A stretch of 40,069 bases of DNA from Candidatus Limnocylindria bacterium (GCA_041495495.1 JBGQCU010000003.1:1-40069); one strand, 5' to 3'. Counted from the first letter of the stretch, positions 2-16,781 are shown. Numbers and translations are program-made. The notes: generated from the sequence alone by a model not told the origin.

Positions 2-1723
2 GATCCCACGCTGATCAGCAATGCCGAGATGGCGCGCGTCTTCAACGAGATCGCCGACATGCTGGAGATCTCCGGCGAGCTGGTCTACAAGGCGGTCGCC
101 TACCGTCGGGTGGCGGATGCGGTTGAGCGCTGGCCGGATGACGTCGCCCACCTGATCGTGGCCGGCGAGGCGCCCAAGATCCCGGGAGCCGGTCCGGCGT
201 TGAGCACCAAGCTGGCCGAGCTCGCCAGCACCGGACAGCTGGGCTACTACGACCGGATGCGCGCCCAGGTGCCGGCGGGGCTGCTCGAGATCCTGAAGAT
301 CCCCGGGGTTGGGCCGCGGACCGTCAAGCAGCTGCACGACGAGCTCGGCATCGAGTCGGTCGATGCACTCCGCGCGGCCGCCGAGGCCGGCACGCTGCGC
401 GGCGTGAAAGGCCTCTCGGCCCGGACCGAGGAGAACATCCTGGCCGCCATGGCGCGACAGGCAGCGCGCGGCACGCGCCTGCTGCTCCACGACGCCGACG
501 CCCTGATGGCCGGCCTCGTCGATCGGTTGCGCGAGGTGCCCGGTGTGCGCGCCATCGAGCCGGCCGGATCGCTCCGACGCCGCAAGGCGACCATCGGCGA
601 CCTGGACCTGTTGGCGGCGACCGATGACCCCGCCCGCCTGATCGCCGCGCTCGACGGCCTGCCCGGAGTCGAGGCGGTCCTCAGCGCGGGGAACGACAAG
701 TCGAGCATCGTGCTGGTCGACGGGCCCCAGGTCGACCTGATGGTCTGCCCGCCGGCCGCCTGGGGCAGCCACCTGGTCCACTTCACCGGCAGCAAGGAGC
801 ACAACGTCGCGCTGCGCGGGATGGCCCTGGAGCGTGGCCTCTCCCTGTCAGAGAAGGGCTTCAAGGTGGTCGACAGCGGCGCGCTGCAGCCGGTGGCGAC
901 CGAGGACGAGGTCTATGCGCGGCTCGGCCTGCCGTGGATCCCGCCCGAGCTGCGCGAGGACAGCGGCGAGATCCAGGCTGCGCTCGCAGGTCGCCTGCCG
1001 ACCCTCGTCAGCCTCACCGATCTGCGCGGCGACACGCACGTGCACTCGGACTGGACCGATGGGGTCGACTCGATCGAGGCGATGGCGCGCGCCGCCCGCG
1101 GGCTCGGCCACGAGTGGATCGTGCTGACCGACCACTCCCCGTCGCTGGGCATCACGCGTGGCCTGTCGGCCGAGCGGGTGGCCGAGCAGCGCGCGGAGAT
1201 CGACCGCCTCAACGTCGAGCTGGCTCCATTCCGCATCCTGCATGGCACGGAGATGGAGATCCGGGCTGACGCCACCCTCGACTATCCCGATGCGCTGCTC
1301 GCCGCTTTCGACCTGGTGGTGGCCAGCGTGCATACCGCCCGCGGGCAGTCGACCGAGCAGCTGACGCGCCGCACCCTGGCGGCGATCGACAACCCGCACG
1401 TTGACGTCATCGCGCACCCCACCGGCCGGATCGTCAACCGCCGCGACCCCATCGCCCTTGACTGGCCGCGCGTCTTCGAGGCCGCCGCCCGGACCGGCAC
1501 CGCGCTCGAGCTGAACGGCAGCCCGCGGCTTGACCTCGATGACGCGCTGGCGAGGGCCGCCGGACAGGCCGGCGCGCGCCTGACGCTGGCCAGCGACGCG
1601 CATCGGACCGAGGAGCTCGACCAGCTGCGCTACGCCGTCGCGATGGCGCGTCGCGCCTGGCTCAGCGCATCCCAGGTGATCGGCACGCGCAGCGCCGCCG
1701 AGCTGCTGGAGCTGGTGCGATGA
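2..1723 (+). CDS. polX: DNA polymerase X / PHP 3'-5' exonuclease (PolX); true start probably upstream of the window
   Basis: Frame is open from base 2 (DPTLISNAEMARVFNEIADMLE). Shows HhH IPGVGPRT, GSLRR..GDLD palm motif with VDL third Asp, HFTGSKEHN, and PHP motifs HVHSDWTDG, TDHS, AHPTGR and SDAH. Confidence 0.95.
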   Translation, partial: DPTLISNAEMARVFNEIADMLEISGELVYKAVAYRRVADAVERWPDDVAHLIVAGEAPKIPGAGPALSTKLAELASTGQLGYYDRMRAQVPAGLLEILKIPGVGPRTVKQLHDELGIESVDALRAAAEAGTLRGVKGLSARTEENILAAMARQAARGTRLLLHDADALMAGLVDRLREVPGVRAIEPAGSLRRRKATIGDLDLLAATDDPARLIAALDGLPGVEAVLSAGNDKSSIVLVDGPQVDLMVCPPAAWGSHLVHFTGSKEHNVALRGMALERGLSLSEKGFKVVDSGALQPVATEDEVYARLGLPWIPPELREDSGEIQAALAGRLPTLVSLTDLRGDTHVHSDWTDGVDSIEAMARAARGLGHEWIVLTDHSPSLGITRGLSAERVAEQRAEIDRLNVELAPFRILHGTEMEIRADATLDYPDALLAAFDLVVASVHTARGQSTEQLTRRTLAAIDNPHVDVIAHPTGRIVNRRDPIALDWPRVFEAAARTGTALELNGSPRLDLDDALARAAGQAGARLTLASDAHRTEELDQLRYAVAMARRAWLSASQVIGTRSAAELLELVR

Positions 1724-2519: not shown

Positions 2520-3575
2520 TCACCGGCTCGAAGGCTTGGCGGATGGTGAGCTCCTTGGCTCAGGAGTTGGCTCAGGGCAGGACTGCCGCTCGGGTTCGAC
2601 AAGCCGGAATCGCAGCGTGAGGTGGACGGTCCGCGGCCAGCCGAGGACGCTGACCCGAACATCGAGGCTGTCGATCCCCTGGAAGCCCAACACCGGGGCG
2701 GGGTTCGACGGGTCGAAAGCGCTGCCGAGAGCGCAGGCGCCGGCACGCCCGACGAGCCAGATCGACTGGCCGCTGCGGGGCATGTCGAAGGGCGTAAATG
2801 GGCGGATCGGTCCGCTCATCCCACCGTTCGGCTCGCGGTCGATCCAAAGGGCCGTCGGCATCATTTCGGGGAGGAACGAGCGGGGATCCCGACCGAACAA
2901 GGGCGACACGATCCCCTCGATCCGGATGGGGAGCAGCCCGTCCGCCAAGAGGTAGAGCCCGACGCTGAAGCGGCCGTTCGCCGGGGCCAGCTCGTACAGC
3001 AGCTCCTCCCCCGAGCCGGGGACCTGCGGCGCCCTGACCGTGTTGAGGCCCAACCCGTAGCCGGAATCGAGAACCGTGACGGGAATGAGGGCTGCCACGA
3101 CAGCCCAGCCTGCGAGCACCACGGCGACTATGGCTGGGAAAAAACGCCGCCGCCCGCGGACGGTCATCGCCAGGATCCCCAGTGCGGCGCAGGCGAGCAC
3201 GACGGGGATGGCCGGTGATAGGTCATCGGTCCCGCTGACGCCGGGGCCCTGGAGCGTCGGATCGAAGGCCCCGACCGGAGACTCGACGGCGGATGCACTG
3301 GCGACCGTCCCGACGGGCGATGATGCGCCGGGACCGGTAGCTGGTCCGAGGTGGCGGGGCGCCGTGAGGCCGATGACGGCCACGAGAATGACCGCCGCGA
3401 GCCCGACCACGGCTGCGAACGGACGTCTCAGTTGTGACGGCTTGGTCGACTCGGCTTCTTCCGGGACGTCCTGCACCCATGATCGAAGCACGTCTGTGGC
3501 AGCGCCGGGATCGCGCCGGCGCAGCACCGTGCGCAGCTCGTCCTCGAGACGCGGATCGCCTGGCTGCCCGGTCAT
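2520..3575 (-). CDS. Putative membrane-anchored anti-sigma factor / sensor
   Basis: ATGA overlap with the ECF sigma stop. Short helical N-terminus (LEDELRTVLRRRDP), about 3 hydrophobic segments, and a C-terminal domain with two Cys and a Pro/Ser-rich tail. Anti-sigma role inferred from position. Confidence 0.65.
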   Translation of the reverse strand: MTGQPGDPRLEDELRTVLRRRDPGAATDVLRSWVQDVPEEAESTKPSQLRRPFAAVVGLAAVILVAVIGLTAPRHLGPATGPGASSPVGTVASASAVESPVGAFDPTLQGPGVSGTDDLSPAIPVVLACAALGILAMTVRGRRRFFPAIVAVVLAGWAVVAALIPVTVLDSGYGLGLNTVRAPQVPGSGEELLYELAPANGRFSVGLYLLADGLLPIRIEGIVSPLFGRDPRSFLPEMMPTALWIDREPNGGMSGPIRPFTPFDMPRSGQSIWLVGRAGACALGSAFDPSNPAPVLGFQGIDSLDVRVSVLGWPRTVHLTLRFRLVEPERQSCPEPTPEPRSSPSAKPSSR

Positions 3576-4141
3576 CGCTCTGCCACCTCGAGGGCGGTCC
3601 GCAGGCGCCCCATCGCGTGGTGCAACCGCGATTTCACCGTGCCCTCGGGGATCCTGAGCACCTCCGCGATGCCCGGGACGGTCAGGTCCGAGTAGAAGCG
3701 CAGCGTGACCACGACCTGTTCGTCGAGCGTCAGGCCGACGACCGCGCGGTCAAGCGCGTCACGCGCCGCTGTCGCCTCGGAGGCGTCTGCGATTCGCGGG
3801 TGCTCCGCCTCGATGAGCTTGCGACTGACGCCATCCCGGGCGCGCCTCGCGCGGTCCCGCAGCCGGTCCCGGCACTCGTTCACGAGGATCCGGCGGAACC
3901 ACGCGTCGAAGCGGGTCGGGTCGCGGAGGCCCGCGAAGCCACGCCAGGCGGCGACCGCCGCCTCATGGACCGCATCCTCGGCCTCAATGCGATCGTTGAG
4001 GATCACCCCGGCCAGTCGATAGGCTCCATCGAGCTGCCGGTCCACGAGTCCACGGAATGTGTCAGCCCGCAGGTCGGTGACCCGCAGCGCCTCGAGCCGC
4101 TTCTCGTCGCCAATCGGTTTCGCCACCAAGCTCCCCAGCAT
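3572..4141 (-). CDS. ECF RNA polymerase sigma-70 factor (189 aa; real gene is the 3' part of the 653-aa ORF)
   Basis: Region 2 (AYRLAGVIL..AEDAVHEA..FDAWFRRILVNEC) and region 4 (LRFYSDLT..IAEVLRIPEGTVKSRLHHA). ATG at 4141 has GGAGG about 9 nt upstream. Confidence 0.92.
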   Translation of the reverse strand: MLGSLVAKPIGDEKRLEALRVTDLRADTFRGLVDRQLDGAYRLAGVILNDRIEAEDAVHEAAVAAWRGFAGLRDPTRFDAWFRRILVNECRDRLRDRARRARDGVSRKLIEAEHPRIADASEATAARDALDRAVVGLTLDEQVVVTLRFYSDLTVPGIAEVLRIPEGTVKSRLHHAMGRLRTALEVAER

Positions 4142-4167
4142 CCGCTGTCGCCTCCGTTCATCCGATC

Positions 4168-4195
4168 TGACGAACCGGCATGGCGAATCGTTCGC
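4168..4195 (-). promoter_or_regulatory. Candidate ECF-type autoregulatory promoter GAAC-N17-CGTC
   Basis: Minus strand reads GCGAAC gattcgccatgccggtt CGTCA about 27 nt upstream of the sigma ATG; fits the generic ECF AAC/CGT consensus. Confidence 0.55.
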
Positions 4196-4289
4196 GAGGA
4201 TAGACGCTGGGGCACCTGACTCATAGAGCCGGACGTGTCCGGGTTCGCGGTCGTCTCTGTGGGGGCTCTCGTCCTTTCTCCGGTGCGCG

Positions 4290-4318
4290 TTGACACCCCT
4301 GTCGGGCTCTGCTACAAG
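4290..4318 (+). promoter_or_regulatory. Sigma-A-type promoter for the TPR / MTase-like operon
   Basis: Perfect TTGACA (4290-4295), 17-nt spacer, TGc-TACAAG extended -10 (4313-4318). Confidence 0.6.
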
Positions 4319-4399
4319 TAGGCGCCCTTCGGCCGGGTGACCGGATTCGGACGGGCATTTCGTGCATCTGGACCGCCTCACGGAGAGCCTGGGGAGACG

Positions 4400-5227
4400 A
4401 TGACGCTCGGAGAGACGGAGCCCACCAACCGGCAGCGTCGCCACCTTACCGAGGTCGCGATCGGGCAGGCCACGCGCGGCGAATGGGAGGCGGCAGTCGC
4501 CAGCAACCGCGAGATCCTGGAGCTGGGCGGCGACACCGATGCCTACAACCGGCTGGGCAAGGCGCTGGCAGAGCTGGGCCGCCACGCCGAGGCGCTGGAG
4601 GCGTACCAGGCCGCTCTGGCACGCGATGCCACCAATCGGATCGCGGAGCGCAACGTCGGGCGGCTGCGGGTCATCGCCGGCGGCGACGGAGCGGCGGTTG
4701 GCGACGGCAAGCCCGAGAAGGCATCCGCTGCGCATTTCATCGAGGAGATGGGCAAGACCGGCCACGCCCGCCTGATCAACTTGCTGCCGGCCAAGCAGCT
4801 CGCCCCGCTCTCCGCCGGCGATACCGTGGAGCTGGTCCTGGACGCCGGTCAACTGCTGGCCAGGGTGGGGGAGGTCGAGATCGGGCAGGTCGAGCCGCGC
4901 ATCGGCTCGCGGCTGGCCAAGCTCATGAAGGGCGGCAACCGCTACGAGGCGGCGATCACCACGGTCGACGGCCACGAGGTGCGGGTCATCATCCACGAGG
5001 CCTTCGCCAGCCCGTCCAATTTCGGCAAGGTCAGCTTCCCGGCAAGCGCCACGGGCCGGGCGAGTGACGTCAGGCCGTACATCAAGGGCACCCCGCTCCG
5101 CTACGATGACGAGGAGGAATCCGAGGAGTACGAGGAGGAGTCCGAGGAGGTCGAGGAGCTCGACACCACCCTTCCGGAGTTCTCCGCCGAACCCGACCTC
5201 GAGGAAGAGCTGCTCGAAGAACCGTAG
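4400..5227 (+). CDS. TPR protein with HIRAN-like beta-barrel domain and highly acidic C-terminal tail
   Basis: ATG 4400 after GGGGAG. About 2 TPRs (AYNRLGKALAELGRHAEALEAYQAAL), then FIEEMGKT, then LSAGDTVEL..IGQVEPRIGSRLAKLMKGGNRYEAAI (HIRAN-like by eye). 23 of the last 40 residues are D/E. Confidence 0.85.
   Translation: MTLGETEPTNRQRRHLTEVAIGQATRGEWEAAVASNREILELGGDTDAYNRLGKALAELGRHAEALEAYQAALARDATNRIAERNVGRLRVIAGGDGAAVGDGKPEKASAAHFIEEMGKTGHARLINLLPAKQLAPLSAGDTVELVLDAGQLLARVGEVEIGQVEPRIGSRLAKLMKGGNRYEAAITTVDGHEVRVIIHEAFASPSNFGKVSFPASATGRASDVRPYIKGTPLRYDDEEESEEYEEESEEVEELDTTLPEFSAEPDLEEELLEEP
5105..5224 (+). repeat. Low-complexity acidic tract (GAG-rich)
   Basis: DDEEESEEYEEESEEVEELD...LEEELLEEP; no K/R in the last 40 aa. 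Confidence 0.85.
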
Positions 5228-5235
5228 GAGCCCGA

Positions 5236-8088
5236 TTGAGCGAGGCCGAACGGAAGCGACTGGATCACGTCGTCCTTCCACGCCGCCTCCCCGGGCTCGC
5301 GCTGCTGGAGCGCTATTTCCCTTCGCCGGCCGATAACCAGCTCGACGCTGAGCTCTCCGCATTCGGCCGCCCCGGCGACACCGTCCTCGACCCATGGGCC
5401 GGCACCGGCTGGACCGCGCGCCGTGCGATCGCCCACGGCATGCGGGTGGTGGCCGCCGATCCGAGCCCCTTTGCGCAGCTCGCCGGACAGGCGTTCCTGC
5501 TCGCCCCGGAGCCCGCCGCGCTGGATGCGGCATTCGCCCAGCTCTCCGCCTCGCGGCGCGTCGACGTGCCGCTGCGCCAGCACCTCGAGGAGCTGTACGC
5601 CACCCGTTGCTCGACCTGCCGTCGCCCGGTCGTGGGCGATCAGTTCATCTGGCCGCGCGACGGCGACGCGCCGGGGCGGAAGGTGTACCACTGCCCCAAC
5701 TGCGACGTGTCGGTCGGCGGTCCGCAGGAACGGGTCGCGCCGATCGACGACGCTGATCTCGCCAAGCTTGGGATCGACCGTCCGGCCGATCCCGAGGCCA
5801 CCCTGCCGGTGGCGGACCCCGCGGCCGATGCCGAGGATGACCTGCCGCCGGCGCCGATCGGGCTGACCGCCATGCCGGATCCGGACGAGGACCCTGCTGC
5901 GCCGCATGAAGACCCCGCTGCGCCGATCGGCGAGGGGGGCGGTCCGCCCGCGCTGTCGCCGGCGCTGCCCGATCCGCCGACCGGGTCGTTGCGGTCCGGC
6001 CGCCCGCGCTTCGCCTCCACCGTCCATCCCGACCCGGCCCCCCAACCGCAGACCGATGTCCGCCAGAGCCTGCACTACCAGCAGCTGCGGGACCGGTTTC
6101 CGGTGCTTGACGGCCGAACTGAGCTGGTCGATGAGCTGCTCGACTTGTACACGCCGCGCAACCTGTACGCGCTGCAGACGATCGCCAACAAGATCGATGC
6201 CGAGTTCCGCGAGCCATCGCTGGCGGCCGTCTTCCGCGTGGCGCTGGCGGCCTGCCTGCTCCCCGGCAGCCGCCTGAACGGCTATCCCGGGCGGGTCGCC
6301 TCGCTGCGCATCAGCGGCGGGCACGTGCGCCAGCCGGCGTCGCGCCACCAGCGCGAGGTGAACGTCTGGCGCCTCTTCGAGTCGGCGGTCAGCGACGTCA
6401 GAACGGCGATCGTGGCGCTCGGCCGCGATCGCCGCCCCGCGCGCTTCGCGGCCGATCTGGACGAGCTGGGCGGCGTGGGGGCGGCCAACGTGCTCTGGAT
6501 CCGATGCCGTCCCGCGGTGGTCGGGCAGTATCTGCCGCCGGAGGGGGTCGACCTGGTGCTCGGCTCGCCCCCGCCCTCTGCGAGCGCCGACGAGATGAGC
6601 TTCGAATACCTCGCCACCGCCTGGCTGATGGGACGCGAGGCCGCAGAGACGCTGCGCCTCGAGCCGCTCTTCAGTGCGACCCAGAGCCGCGGCGAGCCCG
6701 CCGAGGGGACCGCCATGCGGCACGCCATGACGTCCGCAGCCGGAGCGCTGAAGCCGGGCGGCTGGTGCAACATCCTGATCGAGGGCGGTGACCTGGATCG
6801 GATGCTGGCGGTCGCCGTGGCCGCCGCCGCCGCGGATCTCGAGCTGGTGGACGTCATCCACCGCGAATCGGTCCGCTCGGGAGAGGGGATTGCGCTGCAC
6901 TTCCACAAGCCGTCGGCCGAGGATCGGCTGCGAACCGCCATCTCGTCCAACCCGCTCCAGCTCGGTGCCGAGGACGGGCATCTCACCTACCCGGACCTTG
7001 CCACGGCGATCGATCGGGCGGCGACGGCGCTCCTGAAGCGCCGCGGCGAGCCGGTCGGGCTGGTGCGCATCGGTGCCGCCGTGCTGGTGGAGCTGCAGCG
7101 CGCCGGCCTCCTGTCGCGCGTCTCCGCAGCCCGCGGCGCGGCACCTGGGCCGGAGGGATCCGAATCGGCTCCGGCGGAGGCCACCGACGCCGCGGAGCGG
7201 CCCGAGCGCGGCCCGAACATGCTGGCGACCCTCCTGCGCGAGGAGCTGGCGCGCGACGACCATCCGTCGCTGGTCCGTATCGGCGACGCGGATCGGCCCC
7301 TGTGGTGGCTGCGCCAGCCCGAGCTGAGCGAGACGCCGCTGGCAGATCGTGTCGAGTGGGCCACCTTCTCCGTCCTGACCACCGCCGGCCGGCTGGATGA
7401 GGCCGGCTTCCTGGAGCGGATCTACGCGCTCTTTCCGGGGCTGGAGGCTCCGGACGAGGAGCTGGTGCGGGCCTGCCTGGCGGCCTACGCCTTCGTCGGC
7501 GAGAAGGGGCTGCTGCGCACCGAGGAGGAGCTGGCGGGGCGCCAGGAGGACCACGCCCGGATCATCGGCACGCTGGTCGACTACGGGCACCGCCTGGGAC
7601 TGCGCGCCTGGGTCGGTCGCCACGAGCACGAGCGGCCGTATGCGGGGGCCAGCCTGCTCGAGCGGCTGCGCGACGATGAGCGCCGGGCCTACCTGCCGCT
7701 GATCGTGCGCGCCCCGGCCGCGTCCCTGGCGGCGATCGATGCGATCTGGTATGTGCGCGGCCGGATGGCCTTCATGTTCGACGTCGAATGGACCGCCATG
7801 CTCGGCGAGCCGATCCTGCGGCGCGGCCTGCAGATCGAGCCGACCGATCAACAGGCACGCTTCTGCGTCTTCCCGGCCGAGCGTACCGAGCTGCTCCGCC
7901 TGAAGCTGGACCGATCGCCGTGGCTGCGTGCCGAGGTCGCCCGCCAGAACTGGCACTTCCTGAAGTGGCAGCACCTGGAAGGGCTGGCGGCGCGCGATGG
8001 CGCCAGCCTGGACTGGCTGGAGCCGGTGCTGGGGCTCGATCCGCTGATCGAGCGCGGAGGCGAGCAGCTCACCATGTTCGGGGAGTAG
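5236..8088 (+). CDS. Large DNA amino-methyltransferase-fold protein with Zn ribbon and C-terminal PD-(D/E)xK-like domain; catalytic motif IV degenerate
   Basis: TTG start after AGGAG overlapping the upstream stop. Motifs: VLDPWAGTG (motif I), CSTC/CPNC, LYTPRNLYAL, VDLVLGSPPP (in place of DPPY), LKPGG, H..I..L..YG..LG...W, IDAIW..FDVEWT. C-terminus EQLTMFGE. Confidence 0.8.
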   Translation: MSEAERKRLDHVVLPRRLPGLALLERYFPSPADNQLDAELSAFGRPGDTVLDPWAGTGWTARRAIAHGMRVVAADPSPFAQLAGQAFLLAPEPAALDAAFAQLSASRRVDVPLRQHLEELYATRCSTCRRPVVGDQFIWPRDGDAPGRKVYHCPNCDVSVGGPQERVAPIDDADLAKLGIDRPADPEATLPVADPAADAEDDLPPAPIGLTAMPDPDEDPAAPHEDPAAPIGEGGGPPALSPALPDPPTGSLRSGRPRFASTVHPDPAPQPQTDVRQSLHYQQLRDRFPVLDGRTELVDELLDLYTPRNLYALQTIANKIDAEFREPSLAAVFRVALAACLLPGSRLNGYPGRVASLRISGGHVRQPASRHQREVNVWRLFESAVSDVRTAIVALGRDRRPARFAADLDELGGVGAANVLWIRCRPAVVGQYLPPEGVDLVLGSPPPSASADEMSFEYLATAWLMGREAAETLRLEPLFSATQSRGEPAEGTAMRHAMTSAAGALKPGGWCNILIEGGDLDRMLAVAVAAAAADLELVDVIHRESVRSGEGIALHFHKPSAEDRLRTAISSNPLQLGAEDGHLTYPDLATAIDRAATALLKRRGEPVGLVRIGAAVLVELQRAGLLSRVSAARGAAPGPEGSESAPAEATDAAERPERGPNMLATLLREELARDDHPSLVRIGDADRPLWWLRQPELSETPLADRVEWATFSVLTTAGRLDEAGFLERIYALFPGLEAPDEELVRACLAAYAFVGEKGLLRTEEELAGRQEDHARIIGTLVDYGHRLGLRAWVGRHEHERPYAGASLLERLRDDERRAYLPLIVRAPAASLAAIDAIWYVRGRMAFMFDVEWTAMLGEPILRRGLQIEPTDQQARFCVFPAERTELLRLKLDRSPWLRAEVARQNWHFLKWQHLEGLAARDGASLDWLEPVLGLDPLIERGGEQLTMFGE
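5779..6054 (+). repeat. Pro/Asp/Ala-rich low-complexity linker inside the MTase-like protein
   Basis: RPADPEATLPVADPAADAEDDLPPAP...EDPAAPHEDPAAP...; EDPAAP occurs twice in tandem. Confidence 0.7.
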
Positions 8089-8123: not shown

Positions 8124-8156
8124 GGGAGTGCCGTGGTTCCCCCCCGCGGCACTCCC
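8124..8156. other. 13-bp hairpin with TTCCCCC loop between convergent genes (terminator or small RNA)
   Basis: GGGAGTGCCGTGG-TTCCCCC-CCGCGGCACTCCC with one G-U pair; no U-tract on either strand; TAGACT lies 6 nt upstream on the + strand. Confidence 0.6.
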
Positions 8157-8181
8157 AAGCACGTGCGCGGGAGCTCGGGAG

Positions 8182-8520
8182 CTAGGCGCGCGGCCCCTTC
8201 GGACGGGCCGCTCGCCTCCCCAGCGCACGTCGCACCACGGTCATCACCTCGTCGACGTAGGGCTGCCCCTGGCCGACCTCGATGGCGTGCGCCAGGCATC
8301 CGTCGATGTGGTCCTCGAGCAGCAGCAGGGCGACGCTGTCGGCGGCGGCCGTCATCGCCTCGACCTGCTGCAGGACGTCCAGGCAATAGGCCTCGTCCTC
8401 GACCAGGCGCTCGATACCGCGCACCTGGCCCTCGATCCGGCGCAGCCGGTTCAGCAGCTCTCCCCGATCCTTGCTGTAGGAGTGGCGGAAGTGATCGGCC
8501 GTGTGCATGTTGCTGGTCAT
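8182..8520 (-). CDS. csoR: CsoR/RcnR-family metal-sensing repressor (C-H-C fingerprint, likely Cu(I))
   Basis: RLRRIEGQVRGI, YCLDVLQQ and EDHIDGC motifs. Start ATG 8520 (alternative 8508). Confidence 0.9.
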   Translation of the reverse strand: MTSNMHTADHFRHSYSKDRGELLNRLRRIEGQVRGIERLVEDEAYCLDVLQQVEAMTAAADSVALLLLEDHIDGCLAHAIEVGQGQPYVDEVMTVVRRALGRRAARPKGPRA

Positions 8521-8560
8521 ACTCGGGGGTAGTATGTGGAGGCGGACCGCCATCGGTCAA
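8518..8560 (-). promoter_or_regulatory. csoR promoter (TTGACC-18-CATACT) with overlapping CsoR/RcnR-type operator CATACT-CGGGGGT-AGTATG
   Basis: 6-bp inverted repeat flanking a G-tract (8518-8536) matches the established TACT-G-tract-AGTA architecture of RcnR/CsoR operators. Confidence 0.75.
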
Positions 8561-8609
8561 TCGCGGCGCGCCGGGTCAACCCGCCGTTCGCGCTACGATG
8601 CGCCGAGCC

Positions 8610-9338
8610 ATGCCCGACCTTGAACGCCACGAGCTGATCCAGCCTCTCGAACGAGCCCTGGTCATCTTCAGTCATCCGGATGACGCCGAGTTCGGTGCGG
8701 CGGCGACCATCGCCCACCTGACCGCCGCCGGCGCCCGGGTCGACTACGTGGTGACGACCGATGGCGGCAAGGGGACCGAGGACCCCGCGGTCACCTCGGC
8801 GCAGCTGACGTCCCTGCGCGAGGCCGAGCAGCGCGCCGCGGCTGACGTGCTGGGCGTCACCGAGATCGTGCACCTCGGCTACCCCGATGGCTACCTCGAG
8901 CCGACCCTCGCCCTGCGGCGCGACATCGTGCGCCAGGTCCGTCGCTTCCGGCCCGACCTGGTGATCGCCCAGAACCCGCTGCGCCGCCAGGACGGCAACC
9001 CGTTCATCGGCCACCCCGATCACCTGGCCACCGGGGAGGCGACCCTGGCCGCGGTGTATCCCGCTGCGCGCGACCGGCTCAACTTCCCGCAGCTGCTGTC
9101 CGAGGGGCTCGAGCCGTGGAAGGTGCGCCAGATCCTCGTCAGTGGGGTGGAGCGGCCGAACCTGTTCATCGACGTCTCGAGCACGTTTGAGATCGGGCTG
9201 CAGGCCCTCTTCTGCCATGCCAGCCAGATCTCGGACCCGGCCGCCGTCGAGGAGCGGGTGCGACAGCGTGCGGTGGAGCTGGGCGAGCCGGTCGGCCTCG
9301 AGCTGGCCAACGCCTTCCTGTCGATCCTGATCGGCTGA
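8610..9338 (+). CDS. PIG-L / LmbE / MshB-family N-deacetylase
   Basis: HPDDAE, TDGGKG, REAEQ and HPDH motifs intact; ATG 8610 lies 10 nt after TACGAT. Confidence 0.9.
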   Translation: MPDLERHELIQPLERALVIFSHPDDAEFGAAATIAHLTAAGARVDYVVTTDGGKGTEDPAVTSAQLTSLREAEQRAAADVLGVTEIVHLGYPDGYLEPTLALRRDIVRQVRRFRPDLVIAQNPLRRQDGNPFIGHPDHLATGEATLAAVYPAARDRLNFPQLLSEGLEPWKVRQILVSGVERPNLFIDVSSTFEIGLQALFCHASQISDPAAVEERVRQRAVELGEPVGLELANAFLSILIG

Positions 9339-15914: not shown

Positions 15915-16781
15915 GTGTCCTCGATCTGGCGGCCGGTCCGGGAGCGCAACCCCGCCCGCAGCCTGATGGCCGTCGTCGCCCACCCGGGCGACGAGGCGTT
16001 CGGGTTCGGCGGTGCGATCGCCCAGGCGGCGGCCTCCGGCGCGTACACCGTGGTGGTGTGCGCAACCCGCGGCGCGTTTGACCGGCGGCTCATGGATCCG
16101 GCCCCGGCGCCCGGCGGGCGCAACCGCTCGTACCAGAAGCCGGTCGTCTGGCGCAACCTGGATACGGTCCGCGAGGACGAGCTGCGCCGGTCGGTTGGCC
16201 TGCTGGGGGTCCGCGTGCTGCGCATGCTCGACTACGCCGAGGAGGGGCTCGCCGCCGTCGACTTCGACGAGCTCGTCGGGCGCATCGTGCAGCCGATCCG
16301 GATGCACCGGCCCGAGGTGATCCTGACCTTCGGGCCCGAGGGCGTGACCGGCGATGCTGACCACATCGTCGTCGGTCGAGCCGCGGCGGCCGCCTTCGAG
16401 CGCGCCGCCGAGCCGCTCTCCTACGAGGATGACATGGAGGAGGACCAGGTCGCGTGGCGGGCGGCGAAGCTCTACCAGCTGGTGGTGCCCGCCGCCGCGG
16501 TCGCCGCCCTCGGCGAGCGCGCGCCGGACAGGTATGGCTCACCGGACGGAACCGACACCCTGACCCTCGAGCTCGGCGAGCTGGCACAGGTCAAGCTGGC
16601 CGCCATCGGCCGTCACGTGTCGCAGACTGGGTCGGCCGGGCCGTTCCACGATTGGCGGCCGGAGGTGCGCGACGCGTTCCTGGGGACCGAGCACTATCGG
16701 CTGGCCGGGTCGAACCTGCCGCTGCCGGTCGGCAGTGGGGCCGCGCCCGCCGAATCCGGGCTGTGGGACGGGCTCGCCTGA
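15915..16781 (+). CDS. PIG-L-family deacetylase-like protein with degenerate catalytic residues
   Basis: AHPGDE, ATRG, REDEL, LTFGPEG and DADH motifs, KLAAIGRHVSQ; GTG start 7 nt after TGa-TAGACT. Confidence 0.85.
   Translation: MSSIWRPVRERNPARSLMAVVAHPGDEAFGFGGAIAQAAASGAYTVVVCATRGAFDRRLMDPAPAPGGRNRSYQKPVVWRNLDTVREDELRRSVGLLGVRVLRMLDYAEEGLAAVDFDELVGRIVQPIRMHRPEVILTFGPEGVTGDADHIVVGRAAAAAFERAAEPLSYEDDMEEDQVAWRAAKLYQLVVPAAAVAALGERAPDRYGSPDGTDTLTLELGELAQVKLAAIGRHVSQTGSAGPFHDWRPEVRDAFLGTEHYRLAGSNLPLPVGSGAAPAESGLWDGLA

Follow-up and report, generated by a model that had tools for sequence, protein, structure and literature searches.

A methylase-restriction fusion that has lost its methyl-transfer machinery and ends in a clamp-type tail is a core gene of Limnocylindria-like Chloroflexota

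The window analyzed here, a stretch of 40,069 nucleotides from a Candidatus Limnocylindria bacterium (GCA_041495495.1 JBGQCU010000003.1:1-40069), encodes at 5236-8088 on the plus strand a protein of 950 amino acids (aa) in which a degenerate DNA methyltransferase is fused to a restriction-enzyme-like C-terminal domain (Table 1). A sequence-only reading of the window had described the open reading frame (ORF) as intact and host-adapted, but probably unable to methylate DNA. By direct translation the frame reads stop-free to 950 aa, and every motif named in that reading lies where it had been placed. The GC contents of the three codon positions (0.78/0.51/0.89) resemble those of the neighboring genes. 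A 957-aa ORF on the opposite strand (5101-7974) shows the GC1 > GC3 pattern typical of an antisense shadow frame. The 950-aa gene is present as a single copy in the 1.86-Mb, 83%-complete assembly, and its named homologs are labelled Chloroflexota or Candidatus Limnocylindria.

Table 1. Location of the 950-aa gene, its parts and neighboring features in the window; omega is the ratio of nonsynonymous to synonymous substitution rates.
Feature	Position (nt)	Strand	Residues	Remarks
PolX-family DNA polymerase with PHP domain	29-1723	+		upstream, same strand as the 950-aa gene
Tetratricopeptide repeat (TPR) protein with acidic C-terminal tail	4337-5227	+		296 aa; ends 9 bp upstream of the 950-aa gene
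AGGAG Shine-Dalgarno sequence	5226-5230	+		5 nt before the TTG start; overlaps the TAG stop (5225-5227) of the TPR gene; read directly
Dead methyltransferase - Zn ribbon - insertion domain - NmeDI_C-like domain - clamp-type tail	5236-8088	+		950 aa; TTG start, TGA stop 8086-8088
First half of N6/N4-methyltransferase fold	5236-5745	+	1-170	omega 0.04-0.06
Motif I DPWAGTG	5389-5409	+	52-58	
Motif II acid	5458-5460	+	D75	
Cys4 Zn ribbon	5608-5703	+	C125/C128 and C153/C156	
Pro/Asp/Ala-rich low-complexity linker	5746-6075	+	171-280	variable length; presumably disordered; omega 0.13-0.15
Insertion domain common to intact relatives	6076-6525	+	281-430	LYTPRN, ERNVW; omega 0.03-0.05
Second half of methyltransferase fold	6526-6915	+	431-560	motif IV remnant and LKPGG; omega 0.12-0.13
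Degenerate motif IV GSPPP	6562-6576	+	443-447	
LKPGG	6748-6762	+	505-509	
Fastest-evolving region	6916-7335	+	561-700	conserved RGEP (R603, E605, P606); omega 0.27-0.28
NmeDI_C-like restriction-enzyme domain	7336-8064	+	701-943	omega 0.08-0.12 (residues 701-950)
IDAIW...FDVEW	7735-7791	+	834-852	D835 at 7738-7740; W838; D849/E851 at 7780-7788
R883 of NmeDI_C-like domain	7882-7884	+	883	
Beta-clamp-binding-type pentapeptide QLTMF	8065-8079	+	944-948	followed by GE and the stop codon

The Pfam model of N6/N4 DNA methyltransferases (PF01555, N6_N4_Mtase) reaches 14.4 bits on the protein, below its gathering cut-off of 26.7, and covers residues 44-72 only. When 77 family members were combined into a profile, its motif I half matched amino-methyltransferases of the beta class, led by TTHA0409 (1.7e-10) and RsrI (3.5e-10) and followed at lower rank by an N4-cytosine methyltransferase, MboIIA, CcrM and PvuII (overall E 1.7e-10 to 1e-5); against the PDB, the whole-family profile matched methylases only. 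Residues 36-80 align to RsrI 232-276, and the motif IV half aligns weakly, the family-profile loop 'vdlvltePPrpd' at the GSPPP position being aligned to the (D/S)PPY of the beta-class enzymes (PF01555: M.RsrI, TTHA0409, M.MboIIA, CcrM, M.PvuII). In contrast to these enzymes, the protein has its two halves in swapped order, with about 370 residues of ribbon, linker and insertion domain between them, and lacks both (D/S)PPY and an HPTQKP-type motif.

The loss of catalytic motifs was followed in two sets by regular expressions of our own making, on which the counts depend. One set comprises the protein and its 120 nearest cluster representatives (121 close homologs, at least 69% identity); the other is an alignment of 105 sequences with 31 intact relatives and 74 members of a Chloroflexota clade, hereafter the dead clade, namely 13 of the protein's own family f1, 12 of a sister group (f2/f3-like) and 49 other Chloroflexota members. 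Motif I is kept in 120 of 121 close homologs; the acid of motif II and the four zinc-ribbon cysteines are likewise each kept in 120, and the cysteines also occur in all 105 rows of the alignment. A canonical motif IV is found in none of the 121 close homologs, where 43 different pentapeptides take its place (e.g. GSPPP, GSVSD, SSVAD and GLVAA), and in none of the 74 dead-clade proteins (0/13, 0/12 and 0/49); no other (D/N/S)PP(Y/F/W)-like motif occurs anywhere in the protein. All 31 intact relatives have the HKxWxRKP motif, which is absent from the 74 rows of the dead clade; the protein carries ERYFPSPAD at this position, with YFPSPAD replacing the motif. The intact relatives all combine the GxG of motif I, motif IV and the acidic triad of the NmeDI_C domain. 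Family f1 keeps GxG, the motif II acid and the triad in 13/13 and the PP dipeptide in 6/13, the sister group has motif I shifted to GRGG and the triad in 10/12, and the 49 other members have lost GxG throughout and keep the triad in 11. The methyl-transfer machinery, i.e. motif IV and the HKxWxRKP motif, is thus gone, and judging from these motifs the protein almost certainly cannot methylate DNA, as the sequence-only reading had supposed; the loss of the motif IV aromatic residue proved to be clade-wide (0/74 canonical), and the gene is under purifying selection (omega ~0.11). The aromatic residue is retained as RPPY in a distant dead-clade member, L015:7439-9991 (-), and in P0142.

For the C-terminal domain the sequence-only reading had suggested a restriction-like domain, and database matches bear this out. 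PF27126 (NmeDI_C) is precomputed on homologs such as P0002, which is 93% identical to the protein, and in the ESM Atlas residues 690-950 score 0.95 to clusters named NmeDI_C, 'Type II restriction enzyme NmeDI C-terminal domain', with 205 of 256 features shared; residues 555-770 gave no usable Atlas match. Stand-alone proteins consisting of an NmeDI_C-like domain exist. In an alignment of this domain (A4), 9 of 21 members match the PADLOC model REase_II (PDLC03534, best 6.5e-9), and the invariant columns (D, W, E, R) are all found in the protein as D835, W838, E851 and R883. The nearly invariant columns are mostly kept, with D849 standing in for E, and the D-(D/E)-E triad is preserved in 117/121 close homologs. 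The A4 profile yielded only chance matches in the PDB (gp41 and others, E 0.24 or worse), i.e. no solved structure is detectable by sequence. R.NmeDI of Neisseria meningitidis is a 351-aa type II restriction enzyme that cuts on both sides of RCCGGY; the paper on it (PMC2095814) contains no analysis of domains or catalytic residues, and the cleavage role of the domain is putative. Likeness to R.NmeDI and PF27126 lies in the D...W...(D/E)xE...R pattern of the C-terminal 250 residues, whereas fusion to a dead methylase and the clamp-type tail at the end of the domain set the protein apart.

The gene was found in all 31 genomes of the class (Limnocylindria-like Chloroflexota), 30 of them at least 90% complete, each time as one unbroken frame. 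Compared with three same-genus orthologs, the Nei-Gojobori omega is ~0.11 for the whole gene, which is under purifying selection. The most constrained part is the insertion domain at residues 281-430, where R287, R308, E374, N376 and W378 are invariant or nearly so, and we presume that it is a DNA-recognition module. In a FastTree phylogeny the 74 dead sequences are split from the 31 intact ones with a support of 100, and the protein's family and the class form clades, although intermediates were possibly missed because the intact set was collected by motif-containing patterns and the dead set as best matches to the query. The 950-aa gene is a single-copy core gene, vertically inherited in its class. 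Of 201 genomes sampled in the phylum, 65 have matches with E <= 1e-3; many of these matches cover only the motif I stretch, which is shared with ordinary methylases. The phylum rows that also match the C-terminal region place full-length forms in several further families. On plasmids, the protein's C-terminus found no match and the intact relative P0257 was matched via its methylase part only, with 0/211 records covering at least 80%. No description of the family was found in searches of the literature on PF27126, Limnocylindria methyltransferases or domesticated inactive DNA methyltransferases.

Three features were added to the sequence-only reading: the core-gene status, a co-inherited TPR/acidic-tail gene and a C-terminal tail of the clamp-binding type. 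The sequence of this tail, QLTMF, fits the consensus Q-L-x-L-F reported for beta-clamp-binding C-termini, the corresponding archaeal PCNA-interacting peptide (PIP) being Q-x-x-I-x-x-F-F (PMC4549789). All 121 close homologs end in QL(T/S)(M/I/F)FGE. For the wider family the last 20 residues were searched with our own patterns and with shuffled tails as control. Clamp-type motifs occur in 69 of 74 dead-clade members (shuffled 4.9%) and 18 of 33 bacterial intact relatives (shuffled 1.2%), with no PIP-like motif in either group, and 11 of 12 archaeal intact relatives carry a PIP-like Qxx[LIMV]xx[FYW] (shuffled 2.4%) and none the clamp type. Among the intact relatives (loci L027-L092) no cross-over between host domain and tail type was observed; two Planctomycetota sequences nested among archaeal ones in the tree end in KQLSLL and KQLFLI, i.e. 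their tail type has switched. These tail types suggest a coupling to the sliding clamp throughout the methylase + NmeDI_C family.

Within the genome itself such tails are rare. A loose clamp motif in the last 20 residues was found in 10 of 1356 crude gene calls, and Q[LM]x[LMI]F within the final 10 residues in only two, the 950-aa gene and a family-4 uracil-DNA glycosylase (G000:C33:3356-4033, = L120:357-1031), which matches PDB 4zbx with E 3e-47 over residues 9-175 of 225 and carries a 50-residue low-complexity extension ending in QMTLF. A looser match is RuvB (G000:C63), which ends in QPGLFD. For residues 896-950 together with the genome's own DnaN, a complex was predicted with a score of 0.40 against 0.01 for the best of three controls; at least 51% of the contacts were common to the runs, and the pLDDT (predicted local distance difference test) of the partner was 39-40. 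In a benchmark, 116 of 157 solved complexes passed the mark, as did 2 of 215 mismatched pairs; passes at scores up to 0.60 comprise only 18 of the 157 solved complexes plus both passing mismatches.

The exhaustive search of representatives returned 1266 relatives at E <= 1e-3, and among the best 150 of them three are fully canonical (P0252, P0257, P0270), keeping HKxWxRKP, DPFxGSG, TDPPY, LKPG and IDVxW...FEVE(N/H)TT. These three match PF01555 at ~1e-20 (73-77 bits), PADLOC PglXI at 1e-45 to 1e-72, several MTase_II models and, weakly, NCBIfam DUF1156_antiphage. The COG1743-like layout proposed in the sequence-only reading, here COG1743/DUF1156-like, holds for the intact relatives. In GTDB genomes, scanning by pattern confirmed 604 loci of intact proteins. 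The 80 loci that were kept belong to archaea (DPANN and others) and to Planctomycetota, Verrucomicrobiota, Nitrospinota, Bacteroidota and others; the family is thus spread patchily, with a horizontal scatter. The intact single-chain proteins (~800-860 aa; P0252, P0257, P0270 and L027-L092), which are uncharacterised, align to the protein in three stretches (phmmer E ~1e-35 to 1e-38) and share with it the order of parts: motif I half, Cys4 ribbon, insertion domain (LFTxRN, ExNVW), motif IV half, RGEP region, NmeDI_C domain and a short Q-containing hydrophobic tail. They differ in having HKxWxRKP, DPFxGSG and TDPPY (31/31) and in lacking the long Pro-rich linker. No large partner gene is conserved next to them. 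Just upstream of the intact methylase + NmeDI_C gene, 9 of 29 loci (L047, L050, L053, L055, L056, L060, L063, L071 and L077) have a small gene of 98-188 aa, present once or duplicated, at the place where the window has the TPR gene; we take its product to resemble the N-terminal helix-hairpin-helix of RadC. The PglXI and DUF1156 (COG1743, HmaB-type) methylases are matched by the intact relatives over the insertion domain and the motif IV half, whereas PglXI matches the protein itself only with E 0.074; methylases of this Zn-ribbon-bearing kind are those that the sequence-only reading had brought up. Unlike these defence methylases, the protein is catalytically dead, is encoded by a core chromosomal gene and has no BREX, DISARM or Hma partner genes nearby.

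The TPR gene directly upstream is likely an operon partner of the 950-aa gene. In 17 of 18 further loci of the class a TPR homolog precedes the gene on its strand, and the contig of the eighteenth stops 690 bp past the gene, which makes 17/17 assessable loci. The two genes adjoin in families f1, f2 and f3 and are ~2 kb apart in f52/f53, where a 603-aa ORF without a family match lies between them. Apart from the TPR repeats, no PADLOC or NCBIfam family was found in the TPR protein. After a middle domain without a family it ends in a very acidic tail (DDEEESEEYEEESEEVEELD...), and a role as a DNA mimic or inhibitor is conceivable. The window and 7 of the 18 further class loci, all of f1/f2, have the gene of the PHP-domain repair polymerase PolX upstream in the same orientation. 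Relatives such as L022 combine PolX, a 258-aa unknown gene, the TPR gene and the target in a single cluster on one strand. Between PolX and the TPR gene the window holds two minus-strand genes, for an extracytoplasmic function (ECF) sigma factor (3572-4300) and for a 351-aa protein without a family (2520-3575), possibly its anti-sigma factor.

Other neighbors in the window include CsoR, a PIG-L deacetylase and an ATP-binding cassette (ABC) transporter. A 401-aa ORF at 8133-9338 (+) overlaps the gene of the CsoR-type repressor at 8182-8553 (-); its PIG-L / BshB-like deacetylase domain starts only at about residue 175, and the true start of the ORF is therefore probably near 8650. A second PIG-L gene lies at 15915-16781. 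The window contains no partner restriction endonuclease, helicase or ATPase gene near the 950-aa gene, as had been noted from the sequence. Outside the class the neighbors are unrelated, with two exceptions among distant dead-clade members: L015:7439-9991 (-) adjoins a DUF1156 + N6_N4 methylase (HmaB-like) gene at L015:10119-12200 (-), and L025:7943-10357 (-) has 4 bp in common with the gene of a DEAD/MZB (MrfA/BrxH-like) helicase at L025:5682-7946 (-).

The class that carries this gene seems to stand out in its mismatch repair. Of 201 genomes sampled across the phylum, 170 have a MutL match over the cut-off, a tally that includes three unpublished genomes (G038, G145 and G173, each MutL-positive), of which the statement on the class is independent. 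No MutL over the cut-off was found in 12 genomes of f1, 7 of f2 and 1 of f3, nor in the window's own genome. MutS1 was over the cut-off in none of the 31 class genomes, which gave only MutS2-like matches to the ATPase part. NucS_C matched partially in these genomes (~40-65 of 124 positions), marginally over the domain cut-off in 3/31, and no bona fide NucS was found in the class. From these profile searches the class seems to be without all known mismatch-repair systems. A simple replacement of MutL as a general rule was rejected, as families f9, f5, f14, f18 and f33 carry MutL together with this family. Retention of the acidic triad does not track cleanly with the absence of MutL either; f5, f14 and f18 keep both.

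The evidence tips slightly towards the view that the protein is a domesticated methylase-restriction fusion, which has lost its methyl-transfer machinery and would now serve as a clamp-docked DNA-processing factor, neither a methylase nor a phage defence. Its ancestor would have been a single-chain enzyme composed of a Zn-ribbon N6/N4 DNA methyltransferase and an NmeDI-type restriction domain. Purifying selection preserves its Cys4 ribbon and insertion domain, the cofactor-pocket elements (motif I and the acid of motif II), all conserved residues of the NmeDI_C domain and the QLTMF tail. The protein may still bind DNA through ribbon and insertion domain, may be recruited to the beta sliding clamp by its C-terminal tail and may act at sites of replication or repair, most likely as a nuclease or DNA-processing factor, possibly gated by a SAM-like (S-adenosylmethionine-like) ligand and by the presumably co-transcribed TPR/acidic-tail protein. 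The retention of motif I and of the acid of motif II makes a SAM-regulated nuclease activity possible; nothing was found that points to the role of a DNA-modification reader, which the sequence-only reading had also considered. Our confidence falls from the absence of methylation through DNA binding and docking on the beta clamp to a nuclease or processing factor of replication-coupled repair.

Several observations weigh against the docked, DNA-processing role. The protein's own C-terminal domain does not match the PADLOC REase_II model. The clamp-type motif is missing from the last 20 residues of 15/33 bacterial intact relatives, and on the tree the association of host domain and tail type reduces to 4-5 independent contrasts, 3 of them concordant and none discordant (p = 0.25). 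The predicted complex with DnaN lends weak support, and its pass may reflect memory or likeness because clamp-peptide complexes have already been solved. The tail could instead be a structural element of the C-terminal domain. Among the other Chloroflexota members, 38/49 have lost the triad and keep the tail, and therefore the function common to the whole dead clade may need no catalysis.

An alternative is a replisome protein that works without catalysis, as a DNA binder or scaffold, with both enzymatic activities dead or irrelevant. It would only bridge DNA, clamp and TPR partner, and might help to organise the chromosome or act as a regulator. Such a protein would explain that the other Chloroflexota members, with the triad kept in only 11/49, preserve W838 (49/49), R883 (47/49) and the tail, and that the residues common to dead and live forms sit in ribbon and insertion domain, outside the catalytic loops. 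A pure scaffold, however, needs neither the acidic triad nor motif I, and the protein's own family retains them in 117/121 and 120/121 close homologs; we consider this alternative rather unlikely, though worth keeping in view. The thought of a chromosomal single-protein defence, in which a SAM-sensing restriction nuclease acts against foreign DNA and its own methylase has become dispensable, draws on the ancestry in restriction-modification-type fusions spread patchily over many phyla, on the matches of intact relatives to defence-library methylase models, on the retained nuclease-type residues and motif I, and on the DUF1156 methylase or MrfA/BrxH-like helicase beside one distant member each. 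Defence genes are normally patchy and mobile. The gene is instead found as one copy in 31/31 class genomes, in conserved synteny with housekeeping genes and with a phylogeny that tracks taxonomy; moreover, the locus has no protective methylase and the C-terminus is unmatched on plasmids. We therefore hold a defence function to be improbable.

An enzyme that still methylates DNA (or RNA or protein) through a non-canonical catalytic loop would account for motif I, the motif II acid and the LKPGG-type motifs kept in the protein's family. It is hard to reconcile with a loop that exists in 43 variants, including GSVSD, SSVAD and GLVAA, among 121 close homologs, with the absence of HKxWxRKP and of any other PP(Y/F/W), and with a PF01555 score of 14.4 against 26.7 bits, and so appears very improbable. 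The degenerate catalytic motifs could also be those of a restriction-modification remnant decaying towards a pseudogene. This is refuted by an omega of ~0.11, which falls to 0.03-0.06 in two domains, by the native codon composition, by a frame unbroken in 31/31 class genomes and by the strict conservation of tail, ribbon and triad in the 121 close homologs; DPPY, which the sequence-only reading had expected in close homologs of a decaying copy, occurs only in distant, scattered relatives.

The domesticated, clamp-docked fusion that we favour would find a parallel, in mode of action only, in clamp-tethered repair nucleases. NucS/EndoMS and MutL combine a nuclease-type domain with a C-terminal clamp-binding peptide, and the present family appears to do likewise, with a PIP-type tail in archaea and a beta-type tail in bacteria. 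No sequence relationship with NucS/EndoMS or MutL was detected, however, and nothing here points to mismatch recognition. We speculate, as an unlikely extension, that the protein, a clamp-tethered and restriction-derived nuclease with a retained SAM-type pocket and a TPR/acidic-tail partner, provides the nuclease of a third, undescribed replication-coupled repair pathway of the class. Such a pathway could act on mismatches, uracil or lesions, or could discriminate the nascent strand, and would take the place that NucS or the endonuclease MutL has elsewhere. All of the methylase + NmeDI_C family, including its live members, would then work on the clamp at the replication fork, by PIP tails in archaea and by beta-clamp tails in bacteria.

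Apart from eukaryotic DNMT1, MutL and NucS, hardly any DNA methylases or restriction-type nucleases are, to our knowledge, known to be borne by the replisome. If the favoured view is correct, the gene would show clearly how, in a prokaryote, an enzyme of the restriction-modification type was domesticated and became a core protein of the chromosome, its methylase dead yet retained as a folded module, its nuclease-type site and clamp-docking tail still in place. Coupling to the sliding clamp would then be predicted, in bacteria as in archaea, for these widespread and unstudied methylase-nuclease fusions. It would also offer a concrete candidate for testing in a large uncultured soil and sediment lineage without known mismatch repair.

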